NCBI GenBank assembly: GCA_030741355.1
Contig: JASLVM010000002.1
Span: 51,932 to 115,931 of the forward strand
Direction: 5' to 3'
Source of the DNA: Poseidonia sp.
GTDB lineage: Archaea > Thermoplasmatota > Poseidoniia > Poseidoniales > Poseidoniaceae
Length of the DNA: 64,000 nucleotides
The notes beneath the pieces are model-generated. The model worked only from the letters and a program-made list of their open reading frames with translations. It had not been told where the DNA came from and made no database searches. The translations under genes and the position numbers were made by a program. This document shows, piece after piece, positions 35,811-50,958 of the stretch. Position 1 is the stretch's first letter. The number at the start of each line of letters is the position of its first letter.

Positions 35811-36302
35811 ATGGGAGGAGGAGGGACAGCGCCCGCCATGAAGATGAGCGATGTGTTCATTCTCACCGGCCTAACGATGTTGCTGGGCGGCTTGTTCATG
35901 CATGCATGGGTCACTCCAATCGAGCTCAATGGAGAGGACCCTCCTTACACAAACGGAGCGTCCATGATGAAGGGCGATGCGTTTGATTTACGGGTCACGG
36001 TTGAAGAGGAAACAACCCTCAGGATTGTGTTGAAGGACGAAAAGGGCAACATCATCAGCGCTGAATCCTTTGTTCTGGCATCTGGCCAGAAACACAGGGA
36101 AGTGATCAGCATGGACGAATCCGGTTATTTCACCTATGAAATCGACACCAAAGGTGTCAACGCGGCCGTTGAAACCTCAATCGTGAGGAAGTACATGATC
36201 GATATGCTCCCGTTCCCCCTCGGAGCGATGTTCCTGGCCTATGGTCTGTATCAGCGGCGTGAATCCGAAGACGAGGTCTTGGATGCTGAACTAGAGGATT
36301 GA
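35811..36302 (+). CDS. Bitopic membrane protein with a small outside domain
   Basis: The ATG at 35811 gives MGGGGTAPAMKMSDVFILTGLTMLLGGLFMHAW, followed by a ~110-aa beta-rich domain, a second TM and an acidic tail. Confidence 0.45.
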   Translation: MGGGGTAPAMKMSDVFILTGLTMLLGGLFMHAWVTPIELNGEDPPYTNGASMMKGDAFDLRVTVEEETTLRIVLKDEKGNIISAESFVLASGQKHREVISMDESGYFTYEIDTKGVNAAVETSIVRKYMIDMLPFPLGAMFLAYGLYQRRESEDEVLDAELED

Positions 36303-37730
36303 CCAAACCACATCGTCCGGTTCATCCACGACATCATCGACCCCATCAAGCCGGAGCGAACCCGAGGATGTGAGCCCCAGAAGTGCCGCCTTTGAATTTC
36401 TATAGATAAGAGGTCCCAGAAGAGTTGCACCGTTGATAACTTCCTGCTCCACACGATCGATGTTGACCGTTTGAGGCAATTGAGATACCTGCTGGAACAA
36501 GGACGCCACCATGGCGTGTAAAACAGGATGGAGGGCTGACGGATTGGTGAGAAGGCCGAGCTCGTGAAGGTGGGCGTGTTCCTCCCCACTTCCCTCGACA
36601 TTCAAACCAAGGCCAAGCACAACGTGATGGGCATCTCCTTGGGACACCGCCTCGAACAAGATGCCCCCGGTTTTTTTCATGCACCCATCCCCCGCACGAA
36701 GAAAGACATCGTTTGGCCACTTGAGGCACACCTCCATTGCAGAACATCCACTCATGAAACGAATCAGACGTACGAGCGCCTCCCCGACGCGCAACTGGTC
36801 GTAGGTTGAGTGAGGCCAACCCTGACCGGAATGAATCAACCAAGAGGCCATGAACGCGCCCGGGTAAGACGTCCATGTGCGACCTCGACGCCCTCGCCCT
36901 GTGGTTTGCAGGTCTGCTCGAACCGTGGCCCCCGTCGCTCCTGCCAATTTGATCACCTCATCGTTCGTGCTGATGGTGGTTTGATGATGGATGAACGGCG
37001 AGTTAGCGTAAGGTTTCCACATAGCGATAACGGACAATCGTTCGCCGTCTCCAAAAGATTTGGTGGCGATGCATCTTGCGGCGATCCCTTGAGCCCAAGC
37101 AGCCTCACAGGCGGTGTCTCCCACGCCCTTGGATGAGACGGTAAGGTAGGCAACCCCACCGCTGGAAAGAAGCGAAGTGGAGGCGAGGCGTTGGGCCATC
37201 CTCAGGAAAAGACCCACCCGGTCGGTATCTGTCAGTGCGGCCTCTTCCATCGGGCCAAGTGCCCCCTCCACCAGAGCATCTTCTCCGAGATAAGGCGTGT
37301 TCCAAACCACCACATCGTAGGTTTGGTCGCCCCCCCACTGGGCGCTTTGACCGTCGATCGAAGGACCCGGCCCTCCTTCCAACACCCTCGCTGAAAGTCC
37401 GTTTTGAGCAAAGTGTGCTCGAGTACAAGCCACGGCCATGGGGTTGATGTCACACGCAGTAACATCGCAGCCAAGACGTGCAGCATGGAGCGATAGGGCA
37501 CCCGAACCACAGCCAATTTCCAACCACCTCGTTTTTGGAGGAAGACGTTCGTAAGTCAGCACCGATGCGAGGAAATCGGTATCTTCTCGAGGAGGGTAGA
37601 CAGTGGGGGGGATGACCATGGAAAATGTCTCCCCGGTGGGGGCCCTCCAATCCAGGGCTTTTGCGGCTCGTTCGAGGCGTTCAATTTCCGCCTCCGCTTG
37701 GAGGGCGTCAAAAGATGTCTCGCCGCTCAT
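36291..37730 (-). CDS. birA: Fusion protein: class-I SAM methyltransferase (HemK/Mtq2-like) + biotin-protein ligase BirA
   Basis: The N-terminal half has VYPPREDTDFL, LEIGCGSGALSL and VVWNTPYL (an NPPY-type motif). The C-terminal half has LQTTGRGRRGRTW (GRGRxGRxW) and KWPNDVF. The ATG is at 37730; position 37757 is a TTG. Confidence 0.75.
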   Translation of the reverse strand: MSGETSFDALQAEAEIERLERAAKALDWRAPTGETFSMVIPPTVYPPREDTDFLASVLTYERLPPKTRWLEIGCGSGALSLHAARLGCDVTACDINPMAVACTRAHFAQNGLSARVLEGGPGPSIDGQSAQWGGDQTYDVVVWNTPYLGEDALVEGALGPMEEAALTDTDRVGLFLRMAQRLASTSLLSSGGVAYLTVSSKGVGDTACEAAWAQGIAARCIATKSFGDGERLSVIAMWKPYANSPFIHHQTTISTNDEVIKLAGATGATVRADLQTTGRGRRGRTWTSYPGAFMASWLIHSGQGWPHSTYDQLRVGEALVRLIRFMSGCSAMEVCLKWPNDVFLRAGDGCMKKTGGILFEAVSQGDAHHVVLGLGLNVEGSGEEHAHLHELGLLTNPSALHPVLHAMVASLFQQVSQLPQTVNIDRVEQEVINGATLLGPLIYRNSKAALLGLTSSGSLRLDGVDDVVDEPDDVVWSIL

Positions 37731-37931
37731 AAACTGCTCCAAAGCGCATCCGGTCAAGAGGCTATGCTTACGTTTTCATTCCAAAATGTGGAAATTTTGC
37801 GAATATGGGCAGATTTATGAAGGGGGCAGTCCAGCAACCTTTGCGCCTTCCTCGTGGCCCGTGTGGTCACGGCCAACACGAAACGTATAAGAAGGCCATG
37901 CAGGTCGGACAGAAAGCCCAAGTTGCTACAT

Positions 37932-38005
37932 TGGGCCTGTAGCTCAGTCAGGTAGAGCGTCGGACTTTTAATCCGATGGTCGCGGGTTCGAACCCCGTCG
38001 GGCCC
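37932..38005 (+). tRNA. tRNA-Lys (anticodon UUU)
   Basis: Hand-folded cloverleaf: acceptor GGGCCTG/CGGGCCC, D stem GCTC/GAGC, anticodon stem TCGGA/TCCGA with loop CTTTTAA, T arm GCGGG-TTCGAAC-CCCGT. Length is 74 nt. No CCA is encoded. Confidence 0.9.
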
Positions 38006-38054
38006 GCCTGAATGCGCTACCGGTCCAATGTGGAGGGCCTGACGGGGTGTCAAA

Positions 38055-38705
38055 ATGGTCGTAAAGAGTGCAACGAAAAAGCGTTTGATGGAACTGGGCG
38101 TCTCTGAAGAGTACGCTCACAAACTGGCAACCGACCGAAACATGACCGATATCAAGAACATGTCTCACGACGATGTCGCATCAACACTCGGCATTTCCAA
38201 GGACGCTGAGGAATTCATCAACACCATGCAAATCATCGCTGAGCAAGGATCTCGACGACGTGCAGCCAAAAAGAGCACGAAGATCACCATCCGTGCCAAA
38301 GCTGTCGACGACATGGATCGACCAGAAATCACGTCCCGATTCAACGCCCTTAACCACGAACTGGTCCCCCACCAAGAACTGGTTGGCCAAGCCAACATCT
38401 CTCCTGAGGAACAACTGGCCATCGAGATGGAGGAACTCGCACCCTGGAGAATGGTCCAACCCGACCCCGAGACTGGAGAAGACCGCCTTGCAAAGGAACT
38501 CCTACCAAAGATTCTCATCACGGACCCCGTTGTCCAAGTCATCAAAGAACTCGCAGAAAGCGCTGATTCAGCAGCCCACATGGCCGACCCAGACCACACC
38601 CCTCTGGCGGCCGGTTGGATTGCCGATCGTGTGCTCAAAGTCGTCCGGCAATCCCCATCAGCCGGACGGACGGTGGCTTACCGGCTCATCGTGGAGGGGA
38701 ACTGA
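38055..38705 (+). CDS. rpoH: RNA polymerase subunit H (Rpo5) with a ~95-aa N-terminal extension
   Basis: The C-terminal part (HELVPHQELV...LPKILITDPVVQVI...RVLKVVRQSPSAGRTVAYRLIV) is canonical RpoH. The total of 216 aa compares with ~80 aa for typical archaeal RpoH. Confidence 0.85.
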   Translation: MVVKSATKKRLMELGVSEEYAHKLATDRNMTDIKNMSHDDVASTLGISKDAEEFINTMQIIAEQGSRRRAAKKSTKITIRAKAVDDMDRPEITSRFNALNHELVPHQELVGQANISPEEQLAIEMEELAPWRMVQPDPETGEDRLAKELLPKILITDPVVQVIKELAESADSAAHMADPDHTPLAAGWIADRVLKVVRQSPSAGRTVAYRLIVEGN

Positions 38706-38717
38706 GGAGGAGATATC

Positions 38718-41700
38718 ATGCAGGAAATCATTCAAGCATTTTTCAAAGAGCGCAGCCTTGTCAACCACCAGTTGGCATCTTACAACGACTGTATCCCCGC
38801 CACGGAGAACACGATCTCCCGAATGGAACGAATCATCCGCAACATTCGCGTCGGTACCGACGAGGACTTCAACGACGACGAAGGAGGCTACATCAAACTC
38901 GACGTCCACGACCAAGACATCGTCATCCGACTCAAGAACGTGAAACTTGGCCAGCCAACCGTCAAAGAAGCCAACGGTGCCCTCAACCCATCTTCACCAA
39001 TGGAATGCCGACTCCGTAAACTGACCTACATGTCTCCAGTCACCATCGACTTCACCATCAAGCGAAACGGCGTACCCTCTCCTACCGAATCCGGTGTTGC
39101 CGTCGGCAACATGCCGATTATGGTCCGCTCTGAGCGATGCAACCTCCACGCCAAGCACATCGCTGGCGACCGCGTCCTCACCCCAACCACGTCCGCTGAG
39201 GACAAAGCCACATGGCACGAACTCCTTCGCAAGAAGGGCGAAGACCCCCTCGACCCCGGTGGCTACTTCATCATCAACGGAACCGAGCGCGTTCTCATCT
39301 CCATGGAAGACCTCGCCCCGAATCGAGTCACCGTTGAAATCAACAAGCGCTACGCCAAGCAGACAGAAGTCGCCAAAATTTTCTCCCAGAAAGACGGCAT
39401 GCGCAAGCCGCTGACCGTCGAAAAGCGCCGAGATGGTATGCTGATGGTCAAGATCAGCACCGCCGGTACGACGGCCATTCCGGTCGTTTTGTTGATGCGA
39501 GCCCTTGGTGTCGAAAACGACCAAAACATCTTCCAAGCCATCGCTGGAAACACGGATTCGTTCAAGTACATCGTCGCCAACATCAACGAAGTGAACGACA
39601 ACGAAGAATACAAGGTTGTCACCACCGAGGAAAGCCACCAGTGGTTGGAAAAGAAATTCGCAGCAGGCCAACAAAAGGAGTACCGAGAGGCTCGTGTCAA
39701 CCAACTCCTTGACCGAGAACTCCTCCCTCACTTGGGCGACCAGGTCGAAGACCGCGAAAAGAAAGCCATCTACCTCGGCCGAATCGTTCGTCAAGTCCTC
39801 GAAATGGCCATTGAAGGACGAGACCCCAACGACAAGGACCACTACGCCAACAAGCGAGTTCGCTTGGCTGGAGACTTGATTGAGGACCTTTTCCGCGTGT
39901 CCGCTGGTCAACTCGCTCGAGACCTCAAGTACCAACTTGAGCGACACCACAACCGAAAGCGAGAGCTGAAGATCACCTCTTGCCTTCGCCCGGATGTTCT
40001 TACGAGCAAAATCATGCACGCTCTCGCAACCGGCAACTGGGTCGGTGGACGCTCTGGCGTCAGCCAACTGCTCGACCGAACCACCTACCTTGCTGCGCTT
40101 TCTCACATGCGCCGTGTAACCTCGCCTTTGGTGCGTAGCCAGCCTCACTTCGAAGCTCGAGATTTGCACCCTACTCAATGGGGACGCTTGTGCCCCAACG
40201 AGACCCCTGAAGGACAGAACTGCGGTCTCGTGAAGAACGCTGCACAGATGATCGACATTTCCGAGGACATCAACGAGATTGAAATCCGTGAACGCCTTGA
40301 CGAACTCGACGTTTACCAACCCGATGACTGGACCGACGGTGACCGAATTCACGTCAACGGCGACATCTACGGCATCCACAAGCGAGGAAAGAAACTCGTG
40401 GACCACTTCAAGTCATCTCGTCGCCGAGGCGTGATTCCTTCCGAAGTCTCCATCCGTCACGATGTTGAGAACAAAGACATCTTCATCAACACCGACAAAG
40501 GACGAATCCTTCGACCCCTTCTCATCCTTTACGACGGTGCCCCTCGCCTCACACAAGAGCATTTGACCAAACTGTCAAGCGGCGAAATCAACTTCCGCTC
40601 CCTCATCATTGAAGGCGTTGTGGAATGGGTTGACGCTGAAGAGGAAGAAGACCTCTACATCGCCCCTCGTCCGTTCGTTCTGCCAGAAACCATCCCAGAA
40701 GGCGACAGTGCCGGTTTGGCCGGTCGTGTCGTCAAGTACGAAGACGTACAGTGGATGAACTTGGGCGAACCACGCACAGAAGTCGCACACCTCAAGGCCA
40801 ACGTGTCCATGCCAAACGGGGAAATCTCCACCACGGAATTCGATGTGCCGCTGCTCTACACCGCCGAACACACGCACTGCGAAATTGACCCGCAACTCGT
40901 TCTCGGTGTTTGTGCGTCTCTCATCCCTTACCCAGAGCACAACTCGACACCCCGTGTCACCGGTGGAACGGCGATGGTGAAGCAGTCCCTCGGACTGCCA
41001 AGCGCCAACTACCGTATGCGCCCCGACACTCGAGCCCACATCTTGCACTACCCTCAGCGCTCCATCACCCGTACACGAGCCATGGAAACCACGAACTTCG
41101 ATGACCGCCCCGGCGGCCAGAACTTCATCGTGGCCATCATGTCGCTGCATGGATACAACATGCAAGACGCTGTCATCATGAACAAGGGCTCGATTGACCG
41201 AGCCCTCGGCCGTTCGACGTTCAACCGCACCTACAACGCAGAACGCCGCCGATTCCCTGGCGGACAAGTTGAGGAGATTGAGAAGCCCGGAACTTCCAAG
41301 CAGGAAATCAAGGGCCTCAAGGCGCCCGAGTCCTACATCCATTTGGAAGCTGACGGCCTGCCCGTTCCAGAAACCGCTCTGGAAGGTGGCAACGTTCTGG
41401 TCGGCAAGACCAGCCCGCCTCGGTTCCTTGAGGAATCCTCCGGAGCATCTTTCCTGATGGCTCAGGAACGCCGAGAATCATCCATGCTCGTCCGACACGG
41501 CGAGAAAGGTTGGGTCGACAACGTCTACGTCACCGAGTCGCTTGACTCCGGACGCTTGGTCCGTGTCATGGTTCGAAGCCACAAAGTCCCCGAAGTCGGT
41601 GATAAGTTCGCTTCACGCCACGGACAAAAGGGTGTCATCGGACGCTTGGTTGAGCAAGAAGACATGCCGTTTACCCCCGATGGCATCGTCCCCGATCTCA

Positions 41701-42331
41701 TCATCAACCCTCACGCCATTCCATCCCGAATGACGGTCGCCCACGTTCTGGAAATGATCGGTGGCAAAGTGGGTGCTATGGAAGGGCGACGCATTGACGG
41801 TACGGCTTTCCGTGGCGAGAAAGAGTCCAGTCTCCGAGACGGGCTCGTCCGCAATGGATTGGCCCACACCGGACGTGAAATGATGATCAACGGCGAAACC
41901 GGCGAGTCCTACCCCGCCGACATCTTCGTTGGATGTATCTTCTACCAACGCCTCCACCACTTGGTGAGTTCAAAGATTCACGCCCGCTCACGTGGCCGTG
42001 TCCAAATCTTGACCCGCCAACCAACGGAAGGACGTGCCCGACAAGGTGGTCTGCGATTCGGTGAAATGGAACGTGATTGTCTGATTGCCCACGGTGCTTC
42101 GATGGTCATCAAGGACCGACTGCTGGACGAGTCCGACGGTATTGACATGTATGTTTGCGCCCAATCCGGCCACATTGCTTGGTATGACCCGAAGCGTGGC
42201 ACCTACGTCAGCCCCATCCACGGCGATGGCGCTGAAGTCTACAAGGTACAGACTTCTTATGCATTCAAACTGCTCCTAGACGAGATGAAGAGTTTAGGTG
42301 TGGCCATGCGTCTTGAACTGGAGGACCGAAG

Positions 42332-42335
<4 letters not shown>
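38718..42335 (+). CDS. rpoB: RNA polymerase subunit B (unsplit)
   Basis: 1205 aa. Motifs seen: GGYFIINGTERV, NETPEGQNCGLVKN, GDKFASRHGQKGV, GEMERDC. The start is preceded by GAGGAGG. Confidence 0.95.
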
Positions 42336-47079
<4,744 letters not shown>

Positions 47080-47123
47080 GATTCCAACCATGAGAAACAC
47101 ATGTGGAGAATGGAGGAAGAAGA

Positions 47124-47423
47124 ATGGATCTAAGCCGACAATTGAAGAACGCAATCGCAACAGGAAACCTGTTGTTTGGACAACGACAAGCCAAGGACGC
47201 CTGTGCTAACGGGAACGCCAAGATGGTCATTGTGGCAGCCAACTGCCCCGAAGACTACACGACGGACCTTCGTGCCGCCCACCCGGAAGTGAGCGTCCAC
47301 CGAGCACGTATGGTGAATCGAGAATTGGGCATTGCCTGTGGTAAGCCCTTTTCGGTCTCGACCATCACCGTCCTTGATGCTGGCGACAGCGATCTCATGA
47401 CGCTTGAAAGCAACGTTGAGTGA
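47124..47423 (+). CDS. rpl30e: Ribosomal protein eL30 (L30e)
   Basis: MDLSRQLKNAIATGNLLFGQRQAKDA..AKMVIVAANCP...ELGIACGKPFSVSTITVLDAGDSD. The ATG at 47124 is preceded by GGAGGA. The gene is in its canonical position after rpoA''. Confidence 0.85.
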   Translation: MDLSRQLKNAIATGNLLFGQRQAKDACANGNAKMVIVAANCPEDYTTDLRAAHPEVSVHRARMVNRELGIACGKPFSVSTITVLDAGDSDLMTLESNVE

Positions 47424-47475: not shown

Positions 47476-50400
47476 ATGCGAGTGAACCATGTTGCGGTAG
47501 CGACGACTTTCACGGCCTTGATTTTGACCAGCTTTTTGATGGGTTTTGCCATCGAACAGCCTGCTGAACAACCGGTCTTGGACCACCACCCTGTTGAACA
47601 CACATCGGCTCGTTCAAGTTCAGCAGAGGTGTTTCTCGCCAGCGGCGGTTCAACTTCACACGACGAATTCTCGGGAGCTATTGTGGCTTCAGACAGTGGC
47701 TACTTCGTTGCAGGAGACGTCAACTCTTCAGCAGCCAGTTTGACTTTTGGCCCTCATTCTTATGTTCCAACCTCACCTTATAGCAATGGAAACGACTTCT
47801 TTTTGGCTTCATTGGACAACAACGGAGGTTGGAATTTCTTGGTGGGTGCTGACCACACGCAGGGTGGCGTCTCCTTCATGTCTGACGTGGCCTCTCATGC
47901 AGGCAACGCCATCGTAGCAGGCTACATGTACGGCCCCGTAGATTTCGGACAAACATCCCTCTCTTCAGCCGTTCAGTTTGATGCCTTCGTCGCCCAAACG
48001 GATGCGGCGGGCAACTGGATGTGGGCGAAGGGGTTCCAGACCCTTCCCAATTCATCAAGCGATTCCAGCATCCCACAAGCCCTCGCAGTTGACCAATTAG
48101 GAGACATCATCGTGGCCGGTTATTTCTCTGGAGAGACCGACTTTGGCGGAACCACCTTCAACGTGTCCAACCCAGAGATTTTCATCGCTAAACTTGACGG
48201 GGCTAACGGTGCACTCAAGTGGGTCGTCAAGGGAAGCGGCCCCGGAAACCAGGAGGTTACCGATGTCGTTGTTGATTCAAACGGTAACATTCATGTTTCT
48301 GGCGTCACGCAAAACAACGTTCTTTTTGGAACACAAAATTACGCCACGGTAGGGACCACCGATTCCTTTGTTGTCAAACTCTCAAGTAGCGGGGCCATCC
48401 AATCCATCACCGGCTACGGCATCCCCAATCAGGCCGTATCGCTCACCAACATGGCCGTCGACAATGCAGGCGACCTGTATGTAGGTGGTTCGTTTGAAGG
48501 TACAATGGCGAAGAACGGTTGGTCCATCACCGCCAACAAAGGTGGCGCAGACTTGTTCTTCATCAAAGAAGGCACGACATCGAACAACCAGTGGGCCGTC
48601 ACTGGAGGAAGCAATGCTGCCGATAGCTTGAGTGGCATGGAAGTCACCTCTCGAGGCGAATTGATCTTTACCACCTTTTTCGCCAGTTCCACGTTTACGG
48701 GGGGTACCAAGGGCGCTACACCCACCACCAGCAGTTGGACCACCATCAACGCTGATGCCCTCATGGGTGGATTAACCAATACCGGCGGTTGGTCGTGGTT
48801 GGACGTTACGGCCAGCAACGCTCTGGAACTCGGGTGGGGTATCGCCGTAAATTCAAGCGATATTGCGGCTGTGATGGGCTCGTATGCAGGTCCTTCTGGA
48901 AGCAACACCATCACGAAGGGAACCAACAGCGTATCAAGCACAGGTGGTTGGGACAACTTCGTTTGGGCACTTGACCCCTCAATGAAGGCTGACAGCGATA
49001 ACGATGGGGTGCCGGATGTATCCGACAACTGCCCCAATGACGTCAACCCGCTTCAAGGAAACACCGACGGTGACGCAAAGGGCGATGCTTGCGATCCCGA
49101 CGATGACAACGATGGCATCACGGACAACGCCCCCGATAACTGCCCCCGTGGAGGTGCAGCCAACTGGGGGTCGACACAGAACTTTGACGACCCAGCAAAC
49201 TCCACTGACTGGGACCGAGACGGCTGCAAAGACGATGTCGAGGACAACGACATGGACAACGACGGCATTGACAACGTCGACGACCAATGCCCTCGTTCCA
49301 CCTACCAACCGCCGCGTCCAAACTGGGTTTCTGATGAAATCACCGATGTTGATGGGGATGGATGTCGAGATATCGACGAAGATACCGATGATGACGGTGA
49401 TGGAGTTCCAGATTCCAGAGACGATTGCCCCACCGTGGTTGGAGACTCAACCCTCGGAGAGGAAGGTTGTCTGGACACCGACGGTGACGGATGGTCAGAC
49501 AATTTCGACGACTGCCCCACCGAATACGGAAATTCCACCTTGGCTGGCAAAAACGCCTGCCCCGATATGGATGGGGACGGTTGGGCCGATGTTGATGACG
49601 CCTTTGACGAAGACCCAACCCAATGGGCGGACGCAGATGGCGACGGTTACGGCGACAACACCGCCGGTAGCACACCGGATGAATGTCCATCGGTGGCAGG
49701 TACCTCCACCGCCGACCGACTTGGCTGTCTCGATACAGACGGGGATGGTTATTCCGACCCAGACAGTCAGTGGAACACCGAGTACGGCGCTGATGCCTTT
49801 ATCGACGATGCCACTCAATGGTCTGATTTCGACGGCGATGGTTATGGTGACAACTACGCCAACACCTCCTGGGACGACCGAAATCCATCCTGGCCGGGTG
49901 TATACCGAGAGGACGTTGTTCTGCAAGATGCTTGTCCGACCAAAGAGGGCACTTCTTGGCAAAACGGCCTGATCGGTTGTCCCGACCAAGACGGAGATGG
50001 TTGGTACAACCTCCAAGATGCATTCCCGAACGACGCCACACAATGGTCCGATATGGACGGCGACGGATACGGCGACAACATCTCTGGAAACGATGCTGAC
50101 CGGTGCCCGGAAATTGCTGGAACCTCCACCCTCGACCGGTTGGGTTGTGTTGACACCGATGACGATGGCTACTCCGACCCCGACATCACGTGGACGCCAG
50201 AACAAGGCGCTGATGCATTCATGGCCGACCCAACCCAATGGGCCGACCAAGACAAGGATTTCTTTGGCGACAACCCCGCAGGGGACCGAGCAGACGACTG
50301 TCCAACCGTTCGCGGAACCTCGTTCATTGACCGCTTTGGTTGTGAAGACAGCGACGGCGACGGCATTTCTGACGCCACCGCCGAATGGACACTGGAACAA

Positions 50401-50958
50401 GGCGCTGATGCATGCCCGCTTGCGTACGGCAACTCAAGCGCTGACCGCATCGGCTGCGTCGACACCGACGGAGACAACTACTCCGACCCAACACCTGAAT
50501 GGCGAGCAGCAGAGGGTGCTGACGCATATCCTGAAGACCCAACACGATGGATCCTCGAACCTGAAAGCGACGGAGCCCTCTTCGCATCCACCAATGTGCT
50601 CATCGGTGGTGGCGTCGGGCTCGTGGTCGTTCTCGCACTTGTTGGCCTATTCATGAGAGGTCGACGACCAAAGGCCGACAATTCGGCTTGGGAAGTTCCT
50701 CCCAACGTGGGCATGCCTAATTTCAACGCTCAACCCGCCGCAGGTGTTCAGCCAGGATATGCCGCACCGGTTTCGATGCCAAATTTCAACGCACAGCCTG
50801 CTGCCGTGGCTCAGCCAGCCTATGCCGCACCCGTTGCTGCACCCGTGGCTCAACCTGACCCTGCAAGGGAGTACTACAACAGCCTCCTCGCCCAGGGGTA
50901 TCCCCACGAAGATGCCGTACGGTACACACAGCAATACTTCAGCCAATTCCACGGATGA
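47476..50958 (+). CDS. Giant surface protein with SBBP-type beta-propeller repeats, TSP3-type repeats, a TM and a repeat-containing cytoplasmic tail
   Basis: It has an N-terminal hydrophobic anchor or signal. Repeated G(D/N)xxVAGY..G..DFG and DxF(V/I)xKLxxxG blocks are present, along with many DxDGDGxxD motifs. A TM (LIGGGVGLVVVLALVGLF) is followed by the tail. Confidence 0.8.
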   Translation: MRVNHVAVATTFTALILTSFLMGFAIEQPAEQPVLDHHPVEHTSARSSSAEVFLASGGSTSHDEFSGAIVASDSGYFVAGDVNSSAASLTFGPHSYVPTSPYSNGNDFFLASLDNNGGWNFLVGADHTQGGVSFMSDVASHAGNAIVAGYMYGPVDFGQTSLSSAVQFDAFVAQTDAAGNWMWAKGFQTLPNSSSDSSIPQALAVDQLGDIIVAGYFSGETDFGGTTFNVSNPEIFIAKLDGANGALKWVVKGSGPGNQEVTDVVVDSNGNIHVSGVTQNNVLFGTQNYATVGTTDSFVVKLSSSGAIQSITGYGIPNQAVSLTNMAVDNAGDLYVGGSFEGTMAKNGWSITANKGGADLFFIKEGTTSNNQWAVTGGSNAADSLSGMEVTSRGELIFTTFFASSTFTGGTKGATPTTSSWTTINADALMGGLTNTGGWSWLDVTASNALELGWGIAVNSSDIAAVMGSYAGPSGSNTITKGTNSVSSTGGWDNFVWALDPSMKADSDNDGVPDVSDNCPNDVNPLQGNTDGDAKGDACDPDDDNDGITDNAPDNCPRGGAANWGSTQNFDDPANSTDWDRDGCKDDVEDNDMDNDGIDNVDDQCPRSTYQPPRPNWVSDEITDVDGDGCRDIDEDTDDDGDGVPDSRDDCPTVVGDSTLGEEGCLDTDGDGWSDNFDDCPTEYGNSTLAGKNACPDMDGDGWADVDDAFDEDPTQWADADGDGYGDNTAGSTPDECPSVAGTSTADRLGCLDTDGDGYSDPDSQWNTEYGADAFIDDATQWSDFDGDGYGDNYANTSWDDRNPSWPGVYREDVVLQDACPTKEGTSWQNGLIGCPDQDGDGWYNLQDAFPNDATQWSDMDGDGYGDNISGNDADRCPEIAGTSTLDRLGCVDTDDDGYSDPDITWTPEQGADAFMADPTQWADQDKDFFGDNPAGDRADDCPTVRGTSFIDRFGCEDSDGDGISDATAEWTLEQGADACPLAYGNSSADRIGCVDTDGDNYSDPTPEWRAAEGADAYPEDPTRWILEPESDGALFASTNVLIGGGVGLVVVLALVGLFMRGRRPKADNSAWEVPPNVGMPNFNAQPAAGVQPGYAAPVSMPNFNAQPAAVAQPAYAAPVAAPVAQPDPAREYYNSLLAQGYPHEDAVRYTQQYFSQFHG
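50713..50832 (+). repeat. Two tandem 60-bp (20-aa) repeats in the cytoplasmic tail
   Basis: MPNFNAQPAAGVQPGYAAPVS is followed directly by MPNFNAQPAAVAQPAYAAPVA. Confidence 0.8.

Follow-up and report, generated by a model that had tools for sequence, protein, structure and literature searches.

Paralogous N-terminal modules on two RNA polymerase subunits of Poseidoniales, shared with proteins encoded on mobile-element-like contigs

We analyzed a stretch of 64,000 nucleotides of contig JASLVM010000002.1 from a marine archaeon, Poseidonia sp., hereafter the window. It contains an archaeal RNA polymerase (RNAP) operon region, in which tRNA-Lys(UUU), rpoH, rpoB, rpoA', rpoA'' and rpl30e follow one another in this order. 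rpoH, the first gene of the rpoH-rpoB-rpoA'-rpoA'' operon, is an open reading frame (ORF) of 216 amino acids (aa) at 38055-38705 (+); it is followed by an unsplit rpoB (38718..42335, +; 1205 aa, Pfam Rpb2 domains 1-7), by rpoA' (42332..45514, +; 1060 aa, Pfam Rpb1 domains 1-5) and by rpoA'' (45514-47079, +; 521 aa), whose ATG is overlapped by the TGA stop of rpoA'. The subject of this report is a module found at the N terminus of both RpoH (Rpo5) and RpoA'' (Rpo1C). In RpoH, the module occupies residues 1-62 (38055..38240, +), is predicted to form five helices and carries a signature part [VI]S..AHKLATDRNM; it is followed by a basic linker, predicted to be disordered (residues 63-95; 38241..38339, +), and by the core (residues 96-216 and stop codon; 38340..38705, +). 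In RpoA'', the module (residues 1-62; 45514..45699, +), in which the second hairpin is degenerate, precedes a basic linker with the rest of the lineage-specific N terminus (residues 63 to ~111; 45700..45846, +) and the canonical core, trigger-loop motif included (45847..47079, +; PDB matches at E=3e-24).

The RpoH core is itself unusual. Rpb5_C (PF01191) matches it with 34.6 bits, against a gathering score of 23.5 bits, over residues 145-212 only (model positions 29-73), and the 80-position NCBIfam model NF007129 (RpoH) gives 40 bits, below its 83-bit cut-off, with only residues 145-214 matched. Alignment to the solved chains 1hmj, 1eik and 36rp_H places the start motif H-x-LVP-x-H within residues 100-110 (NHELVPHQ at 100-107), and the C-terminal SPxAG..xYRLV motif is present as SPSAGRTVAYRLIV at residues 199-212. 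Based on operon position and these motifs, we treat the protein as RpoH despite the failed cut-off. Solved archaeal RpoH chains measure 77-84 aa; the excess in the window consists of ~95 N-terminal aa and of two ~22-aa core insertions, at residues ~111-144 and ~164-191 relative to Methanocaldococcus jannaschii RpoH. An extension of ~95 aa had been proposed in a preliminary description of this locus, and both the start motif and the length of the solved chains bear it out. RpoH fails the NCBIfam cut-off because of the two core insertions, and it is therefore found under “hypothetical protein” annotations: in public gene calls it is often hypothetical or started at the internal Met58 (159-aa P0034, P0036, P0037 and P0041).

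RpoA'' passes the 367-position model TIGR02389 (423.4 bits, cut-off 420.65), its residues 154-516 corresponding to model positions 18-365, and Pfam Rpb1_5 (Rpb1 domain 5) starts at residue 96. Solved Rpo1C chains, of 391-397 aa, align only from residues ~112-124 (S. shibatae Rpo1C residue 13 aligns with residue 124 of the window protein), and the N-terminal extension is thus ~110 aa long. Further downstream, residues 155-227 align with yeast Rpb1 1036-1108.

The two N termini are clearly related, as the preliminary description had claimed: BLASTP aligns them with E=3e-15 and 36% identity over 115 columns, with 62% identity over the first 42 residues. When either module was compared by tblastn with the six frames of the window, only the two copies were found (E about 4e-14; next match E>0.3). 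The likeness quoted at the DNA level also stands, with 19/20 bases matching and 61% identity over 150 nt. Two explanations of it at the DNA level were rejected: paralogues share codons at a frequency of 0.46 within genomes vs 0.42 between genomes, and this lack of a within-genome excess rules out gene conversion and, likewise, a DNA-level element at the 5' ends. We therefore attribute the DNA-level likeness to conservation of the protein. The R(A/T)KAV linker reported to be common to both proteins is indeed shared among close relatives, but in L096, a lineage diverged at roughly the family level, the corresponding segments read MTISSRTVD and RSRSITAQP. What is conserved in the tail after the module is its basic character (net charge +5.6 in RpoH and +5.1 in RpoA''), not the string.

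Analysis of 79 unique orthologous rpoH sequences from species-representative genomes gave a ratio of nonsynonymous to synonymous substitution rates (dN/dS) of 0.048 for codons 1-57, upstream of Met58, of 0.048 for the linker and of 0.067 for the core. Within codons 1-57, variable sites numbered 28, 13 and 55 of 57 at the first, second and third codon positions, respectively, and the extension showed neither indels nor stops in any of the 79 orthologues. M58 is invariant, as are K76, T78 and I79 of the linker, where the strand-like motif KITI(R/S) and DRPEIT.RFNALNH are highly conserved. The overlap of the rpoA' stop with the rpoA'' start, TGATG, was present in 59/59 loci; a Shine-Dalgarno-like GGAGGTGA lies within the end of rpoA' (45498..45513, +), 5' of the module start, and similar sequences are the commonest upstream 18-mers before rpoA'' among the loci. 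Judged by these codon patterns, the RpoH extension is translated, and strong purifying selection acts on it. The dN/dS across codons 1-57, together with the translational coupling of rpoA'', speaks for an extension that is made and effectively refutes the internal-Met start that the preliminary description had considered. A diagnostic tryptic peptide of the RpoH extension is LMELGVSEEYAHK.

We then considered the distribution of the two fusions. A scan of the genome collection yielded the best 80 loci, all from Poseidoniales, with marine group III (MGIII) and other Thermoplasmatota lying outside these loci. Among them, RpoH measures 216-217 aa in 79/79, RpoA'' bears the module in every locus reaching far enough, and both paralogues always occur together in the examined loci. 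Conservation of the RpoA'' module was assessed on 52 unique orthologous N termini. Chromosomal metagenome loci agree, 65 of them with rpoA''; the metagenome DNA pattern, designed to leave rpoA'' out, is unspecific, 65/79 matched loci being ordinary rpoA''. In L096, whose RpoB and RpoA' are 73% and 71% identical to those of the window, both modules are kept together with their paralogue-specific signatures (R10/N-M in RpoH, K10/K-W in RpoA''). Between the window and L096, the modules change no faster than the cores, module and core identities being 71% vs 66% for RpoA'' and 51% vs 51% for RpoH. A module-bearing RpoA'' also occurs in a record named Thalassarchaeaceae (P0193), such that the fusions are present in both Poseidoniaceae-named and Thalassarchaeaceae-named records. 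Since L096 and the Thalassarchaeaceae record have them, the duplication and both fusions predate the deepest sampled split, at 73% RpoB identity. With more than 140 independent loci showing the architecture, the module is well represented in related genomes, which answers the concern, raised at the outset, that it could stem from misassembly. Absence outside Poseidoniales is suggested by the canonical model lengths, by the literature and by the finding of only 203 clusters, all inspected ones being Poseidoniales-like in signature. One record titled “Verrucomicrobiales bacterium ARS100” (L002, NZEQ01000081.1) holds a module 100% identical to that of the window and a full archaeal rpoH...rpoA'' operon, and is evidently a mis-binned Poseidoniales contig.

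An AlphaFold2 model of the module, built on a 14-sequence alignment, has a mean predicted local distance difference test score (pLDDT) of 83.7 (range reported 83-90), with helices at residues 5-13, 18-24, 30-34, 38-45 and 52-70. In the model of full-length RpoH the module is unchanged and residues 68-115 fall below a pLDDT of 50; the core is poorly modeled (pLDDT 45-70), which leaves the model uninformative as to whether the module or the KITI strand packs against it. The RpoH module is thereby predicted to be an independent domain on a disordered tether. Foldseek comparison of the 73-residue model with the PDB returned as highest-probability matches tandem helix-hairpin-helix domains, (HhH)2, namely UvrC-C (prob 0.94), FANCM-FAAP24 (prob 0.96; template-modeling (TM) score 0.65, root-mean-square deviation (rmsd) 1.8 A), NusA and RAD51/RadA-N. 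The first hairpin, L14-G15-[VI]16-S17 ... A21 ... L24, follows the canonical h-x-x-h-G-h-S-x3-A-x2-h, with G15, A21 and L24 invariant; the second, L45-G46-I47-S48 (LGIS), is found in the RpoH type only, and CETDSE takes its place in RpoA''.

Sequence searches returned no counterpart. The module has no model in Pfam-A or NCBIfam, and a Pfam scan at E<=10 gave no HHH_*, SAP (PF02037) or Rpb5_N (PF03871) match; Rpb5_N was also unmatched in full RpoH at E<=1. In the PDB, phmmer found no relevant match and a profile search (hmmsearch) found only designed repeat proteins at E>5. Alignment by hhalign with one XPF/ERCC4-type nuclease, which has weak C-terminal HHH_5/HHH_2 Pfam matches, had a probability of 1.5%, and Foldseek against a viral structure library gave nothing meaningful. 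Of the two identities first suggested for the module, HhH-like agrees with the predicted fold; SAP found no support, given the missing Pfam match and a five-helix model instead of a two-helix motif of ~35 aa. Homology to the Rpb5 jaw was likewise unsupported, as Rpb5_N matches neither the protein nor the module. The module is, by predicted fold, (HhH)2/SAM-like, and we file it as a member of neither family.

The preliminary description had dealt with the module as duplicated within RNAP. The duplication is not specific to RNAP: when 1.84 billion representative proteins were searched exhaustively with a profile, 203 clusters of carriers emerged, in which the module is almost always at residue 1, and besides RpoH and RpoA'' it heads ~36 unrelated tail families, at least 11 of them with more than one member, on mobile-element-like contigs. 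With such a distribution, other functions become likely than for a module of RNAP alone. Among the carriers are a 1292-aa ORFan, an 851-aa AAA_15/AAA_21 ATPase with C2H2 fingers, Zn-ribbon proteins, a MORN-repeat protein and two recurrent families of unknown function (proteins P0103, P0111, P0084, P0157, P0093, P0140, P0138, P0229, P0123 and others; loci L084-L095, L098, L104, L128, L138, L140, L156, L160, L167, L168 and L172). In a 193-205-aa protein (P0123/P0307; L095:314-895), one TFIIB cyclin repeat (PF00382, 25.9 bits) follows the module, which sits where transcription factor B (TFB) normally has its RNAP-binding Zn ribbon; this fusion was found in only two clusters of the indexed protein search. 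Most non-RNAP carriers are of the RpoA'' type (K10/KW29-30), a minority being of the RpoH type, one of which (P0084) has an RpoH-like linker. Their conservation is limited to the first 35-55 residues. Across all carriers M1-K9, L11, G15, A21, H22, L24, A25 and D27 are conserved at >=90%, and R28 and K34 at >=60%, the conserved residues being rich in Lys/Arg (K4, K8, K9, R28, K34). Two carriers depart from the usual arrangement: P0102 (186 aa) has two module copies in tandem and could serve as a natural test case of module-module pairing, and P0144 (547 aa; cf. L107) is a HEAT-like repeat protein that carries the module C-terminally, at residues 452-523.

The contigs encoding non-RNAP carriers are ORFan-dense, with mostly co-directional genes, and one reaches 165,862 bp. 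Neighboring genes encode PCNA, primase, ribonucleotide reductase (RNR), XPF/ERCC4 and Hjc nucleases, FEN and helicase, as well as DNA methyltransferases, Mom, ParA, a Cas4-like nuclease and a TFB homologue; the fusion partners themselves are for the most part nucleic-acid proteins or have nucleic-acid genes as neighbors. By gene content, these contigs look like archaeal mobile-element or virus-like DNA. A PHROG scan of 120 neighboring ORFs, which come from element fragments only, gave no capsid, portal, terminase or tail match; IMG/VR gave no confirmed module match by profile scan or degenerate DNA pattern; and GenBank phage records gave none by tblastn with the module or with a 979-aa neighbor. 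The RNR and TFB neighbors had distant matches only. Of the genes that characterize magroviruses, replication genes (PCNA, primase, RNR, XPF, Hjc, FEN, helicase, TFB) were seen on the fragments. The carrier contigs resemble the magrovirus-related group D elements, in which likewise no morphogenetic block was found and in which one gene is annotated “DNA-dependent RNA polymerase A” (Philosof et al. 2017, PMC5434244); this annotation may reflect a module-bearing non-RNAP protein.

Based on these observations, we propose, tentatively and well aware that the proposal may prove wrong, that the two paralogous, flexibly tethered domains which Poseidoniales RNAP carries at the N termini of RpoH and RpoA'' act as nucleic-acid-contacting arms. 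According to this model, the modules and their basic tethers would be mobile arms contacting nucleic acid, most plausibly the downstream duplex DNA entering the cleft, and would stabilize open or elongation complexes, as the Rpb5 jaw is thought to do. Both attachment points would lie on the “shelf”/lower-jaw side. The RpoH N terminus corresponds, by homology, to the point where the eukaryotic Rpb5 jaw emerges and where Rpo13 of Sulfolobales docks, and the RpoA'' N terminus would map to about Rpb1 residue 1000, in the foot, which we take to be in the same shelf module as Rpb5. Both arms would thus leave the same face, and tethers of 30-50 residues could reach the downstream DNA or each other. 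Since many DNA-transaction proteins encoded by mobile elements of Poseidoniales likewise begin with the module, it would be a lineage-specific portable targeting domain, which RNAP acquired twice by duplication.

Known accessory elements of multisubunit RNAPs offer several comparisons. Archaeal Rpo5 lacks the Rpb5 jaw. The exposed groove next to the downstream DNA is occupied differently from lineage to lineage: Sulfolobales have Rpo13 there, eukaryotes the Rpb5 jaw and Thermus a beta' insertion (PMC2675907). Like the module, the eukaryotic jaw is an extra domain N-terminal to the RpoH/Rpb5 assembly domain, with the same exit point near downstream DNA (PMC2675907), and is lineage-wide and essential-looking; however, the jaw is ~130 aa long and rigidly packed, whereas the module is ~60 aa, helical and on a disordered basic tether, has a second copy on RpoA'' and occurs on many non-RNAP proteins. 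Rpo13 of Sulfolobales/Desulfurococcales, reported to be absent from Euryarchaea, is also a small helical, lineage-specific accessory element with a Lys-rich tail, which lies between Rpo5/RpoH and the clamp head and is proposed to touch downstream DNA (PMC2675907). The preliminary description had suggested that the module may be an analogue of it. The likeness in position is retained, but Rpo13 is a separate subunit of ~100 aa with a helix-turn-helix core (predicted to have three helices) and a C-terminal basic tail, whereas the Poseidoniales element has five helices, is fused to two subunits and has its basic segment after the domain, ahead of the core. The module showed no sequence similarity to Rpo13, and the analogy, as far as the comparison goes, is one of position only.

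The closest functional picture, by analogy, is the C-terminal domain of the bacterial alpha subunit (alphaCTD), a small HhH-type helical domain present in two copies per enzyme on flexible linkers. AlphaCTDs bind DNA at the UP-element and dock regulators, including the (HhH)2 AR2 domain of NusA. Unlike the Poseidoniales modules, which are diverged paralogues at the N termini of RpoH and RpoA'', the two alphaCTDs are identical copies at the C terminus of alpha, and the 50 best PDB matches of Foldseek included no alphaCTD. The (HhH)2 domains of XPF/ERCC1, FANCM-FAAP24, UvrC and RadA/RAD51-N resemble the module in the predicted five-helix fold, with query-normalized TM of 0.5-0.65 and rmsd of 1.8-2.5 A over ~60 residues, and in the first hairpin, which fits their G-h-[GS] consensus; they differ in that most module carriers have a degenerate second hairpin or none and in that the invariant arm MVVKSATKK has no counterpart. 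Paralogous (HhH)2 copies can heterodimerize and bind DNA non-specifically.

Several observations weigh against the proposal of nucleic-acid-contacting arms. The Foldseek check, which had been recommended for the module, did rank (HhH)2 domains highest in probability, but no match had a significant E-value (all >0.6), as expected for 73 residues, and the fold is matched about equally well by SAM domains, a class of protein-protein modules. At the sequence level, the Pfam, PDB (phmmer and hmmsearch) and hhalign comparisons yielded no tie to any HhH family. Besides being degenerate in RpoA'', the second hairpin is unconserved in mobile-element carriers. With net charges of -1.5 in RpoH and -2.9 in RpoA'', the folded domain is acidic, the basic charge residing in the linkers. 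In addition, MVVKSATKK and other surface residues are near-absolute in host and element proteins; conservation of MVVKSATKK exceeds what is expected of a non-specific backbone binder and hints at one specific ligand. Finally, that the two attachment points lie close together is deduced from homologous structures and RNA polymerase II domain maps, and DNA contact by the module is a hypothesis.

Some of these points fit better with the main alternative, possible though on balance doubtful, in which the module acts mainly in protein-protein contacts as a docking tag: the RpoH and RpoA'' copies would pair with each other, or both would bind one common host factor, and element proteins, mostly of the RpoA'' type, would use the module to plug into or compete with the host transcription machinery. 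The module stands at residue 1 of ~36 unrelated tail families, most carriers have the RpoA''-type signature K10/KW29-30, and surface residues stay near-invariant in host and element copies despite saturation of synonymous sites and without gene conversion. In the polymerase, the paralogues obligatorily co-occur and keep their paralogue-specific signatures in diverged lineages. The acidity of the folded domain suits this reading too, and so does the structural comparison, in which the best single match, FANCM-FAAP24, is a heterodimerizing (HhH)2 pair and SAM oligomerization domains match equally; in ERCC1-XPF as in FANCM-FAAP24, paralogous (HhH)2 domains pair with each other. The TFIIB-repeat carrier P0123, with the module in place of the RNAP-binding Zn ribbon, is what one would expect of a docking tag, but this module-TFB fusion is a tiny group of two clusters. 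Moreover, (HhH)2 domains are common on DNA enzymes as generic DNA tethers, so that promiscuity alone needs no docking, and the basic linker and conserved Lys/Arg suit nucleic-acid binding. A more specific form, which we consider unlikely, is that the module is a lineage-specific address tag and that elements repeatedly captured the 5' end of rpoA'', less often that of rpoH, in order to plug into, redirect or compete with host RNAP. If this were true, a TFB-like factor, an OLD/AbiEii-type ATPase and Zn-ribbon proteins would be equipped with a docking tag for host RNAP.

It is improbable, in our estimate, that the extensions have a purely structural role, stabilizing or chaperoning a heavily decorated RNAP with no external ligand, for example if the KITI/TKVR strand motifs and the modules packed on the enzyme and offset the insertions in RpoH, RpoA' and RpoB. 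The linker is indeed no mere spacer, since KITI(R/S) and DRPEIT.RFNALNH are highly conserved and its dN/dS equals that of codons 1-57, and insertions peculiar to the lineage also occur elsewhere in this RNAP, in the RpoH core and in RpoA'; however, such a role leaves the module on dozens of non-RNAP proteins unexplained, and AlphaFold2 shows the module independent of the core, though the core model is poor. As for an artefact, that is, an extension never made owing to a start at Met58, or a similarity arising from misassembly, gene conversion or a DNA-level element, the invariance of M58 and the several public gene calls that begin there are outweighed by the constraint on codons 1-57, the absence of stops and frameshifts in 79 independent assemblies, the number of independent loci, the coupled rpoA'' start and the shared-codon frequencies, and on these sequence-based grounds we regard it as effectively excluded.

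The surroundings of the operon showed further features. The tRNA-Lys(UUU) gene (37933..38008, +; predicted by ARAGORN) ends 46 nt upstream of rpoH, an arrangement kept in the diverged lineage L096 (L096:9873-9949); with synteny kept at 73% RpoB identity, the tRNA may share a transcript with the RNAP operon or mark its promoter region. The divergent neighbor (36291-37757, -) is a fusion of a class I S-adenosylmethionine methyltransferase (PrmA/MTS-like) with a biotin/lipoate protein ligase domain and is syntenic with rpoH in L096 and L097. RpoA' (1060 aa) is ~150 aa longer than usual, with an insertion at roughly residues 400-558 that splits Pfam Rpb1 domain 2 in two; this segment has CxxC-type motifs (CHNPEC...C, CPHCGSPF) and weak zinc-ribbon matches, and looks like a lineage-specific Zn-binding insertion. 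On the 3' side, rpoA'' is followed by rpl30e (47103-47423, +) and, directly after it, by a gene (47476-50958, +) for a 1160-aa protein with a transmembrane-like N terminus, thrombospondin type 3 (DxDxDG) repeats and a Pro/Ala-rich C terminus, which occupies the place where archaeal operons usually run on into nusA-rps12-rps7.

In the literature searched, we found no description of an N-terminal domain on RpoH or RpoA'' in Poseidoniales. Archaeal RpoH has been stated to have no N-terminal extensions and to consist only of the Rpb5 C-terminal assembly domain (2014, PMC3906176), and a survey from 2026 of how small-subunit domains evolved in archaeal RNAPs mentions neither Poseidoniales nor a Thermoplasmatota lineage. 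The finding belongs with the lineage-specific accessory domains of multisubunit RNAPs, the link to mobile elements being its more novel part. It means that Poseidoniales, a whole archaeal order that ranks with the most abundant surface-ocean microbes, break the textbook rule for RpoH, with a second copy of the module on RpoA''. In practice, because RpoH is missed or started internally in annotation, marker-gene and completeness analyses of marine group II (MGII) genomes can be distorted. With the Rpb5 jaw, Rpo13 and the beta' insertion of Thermus as the other three, the extensions would be the fourth independent decoration of the lower-jaw/downstream-DNA side of the enzyme, and their arrangement recalls the two tethered alphaCTDs of bacteria. 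The presence of the same module on mobile-element proteins would, in turn, offer a testable route into the interplay between virus or plasmid and host transcription in an uncultured lineage.

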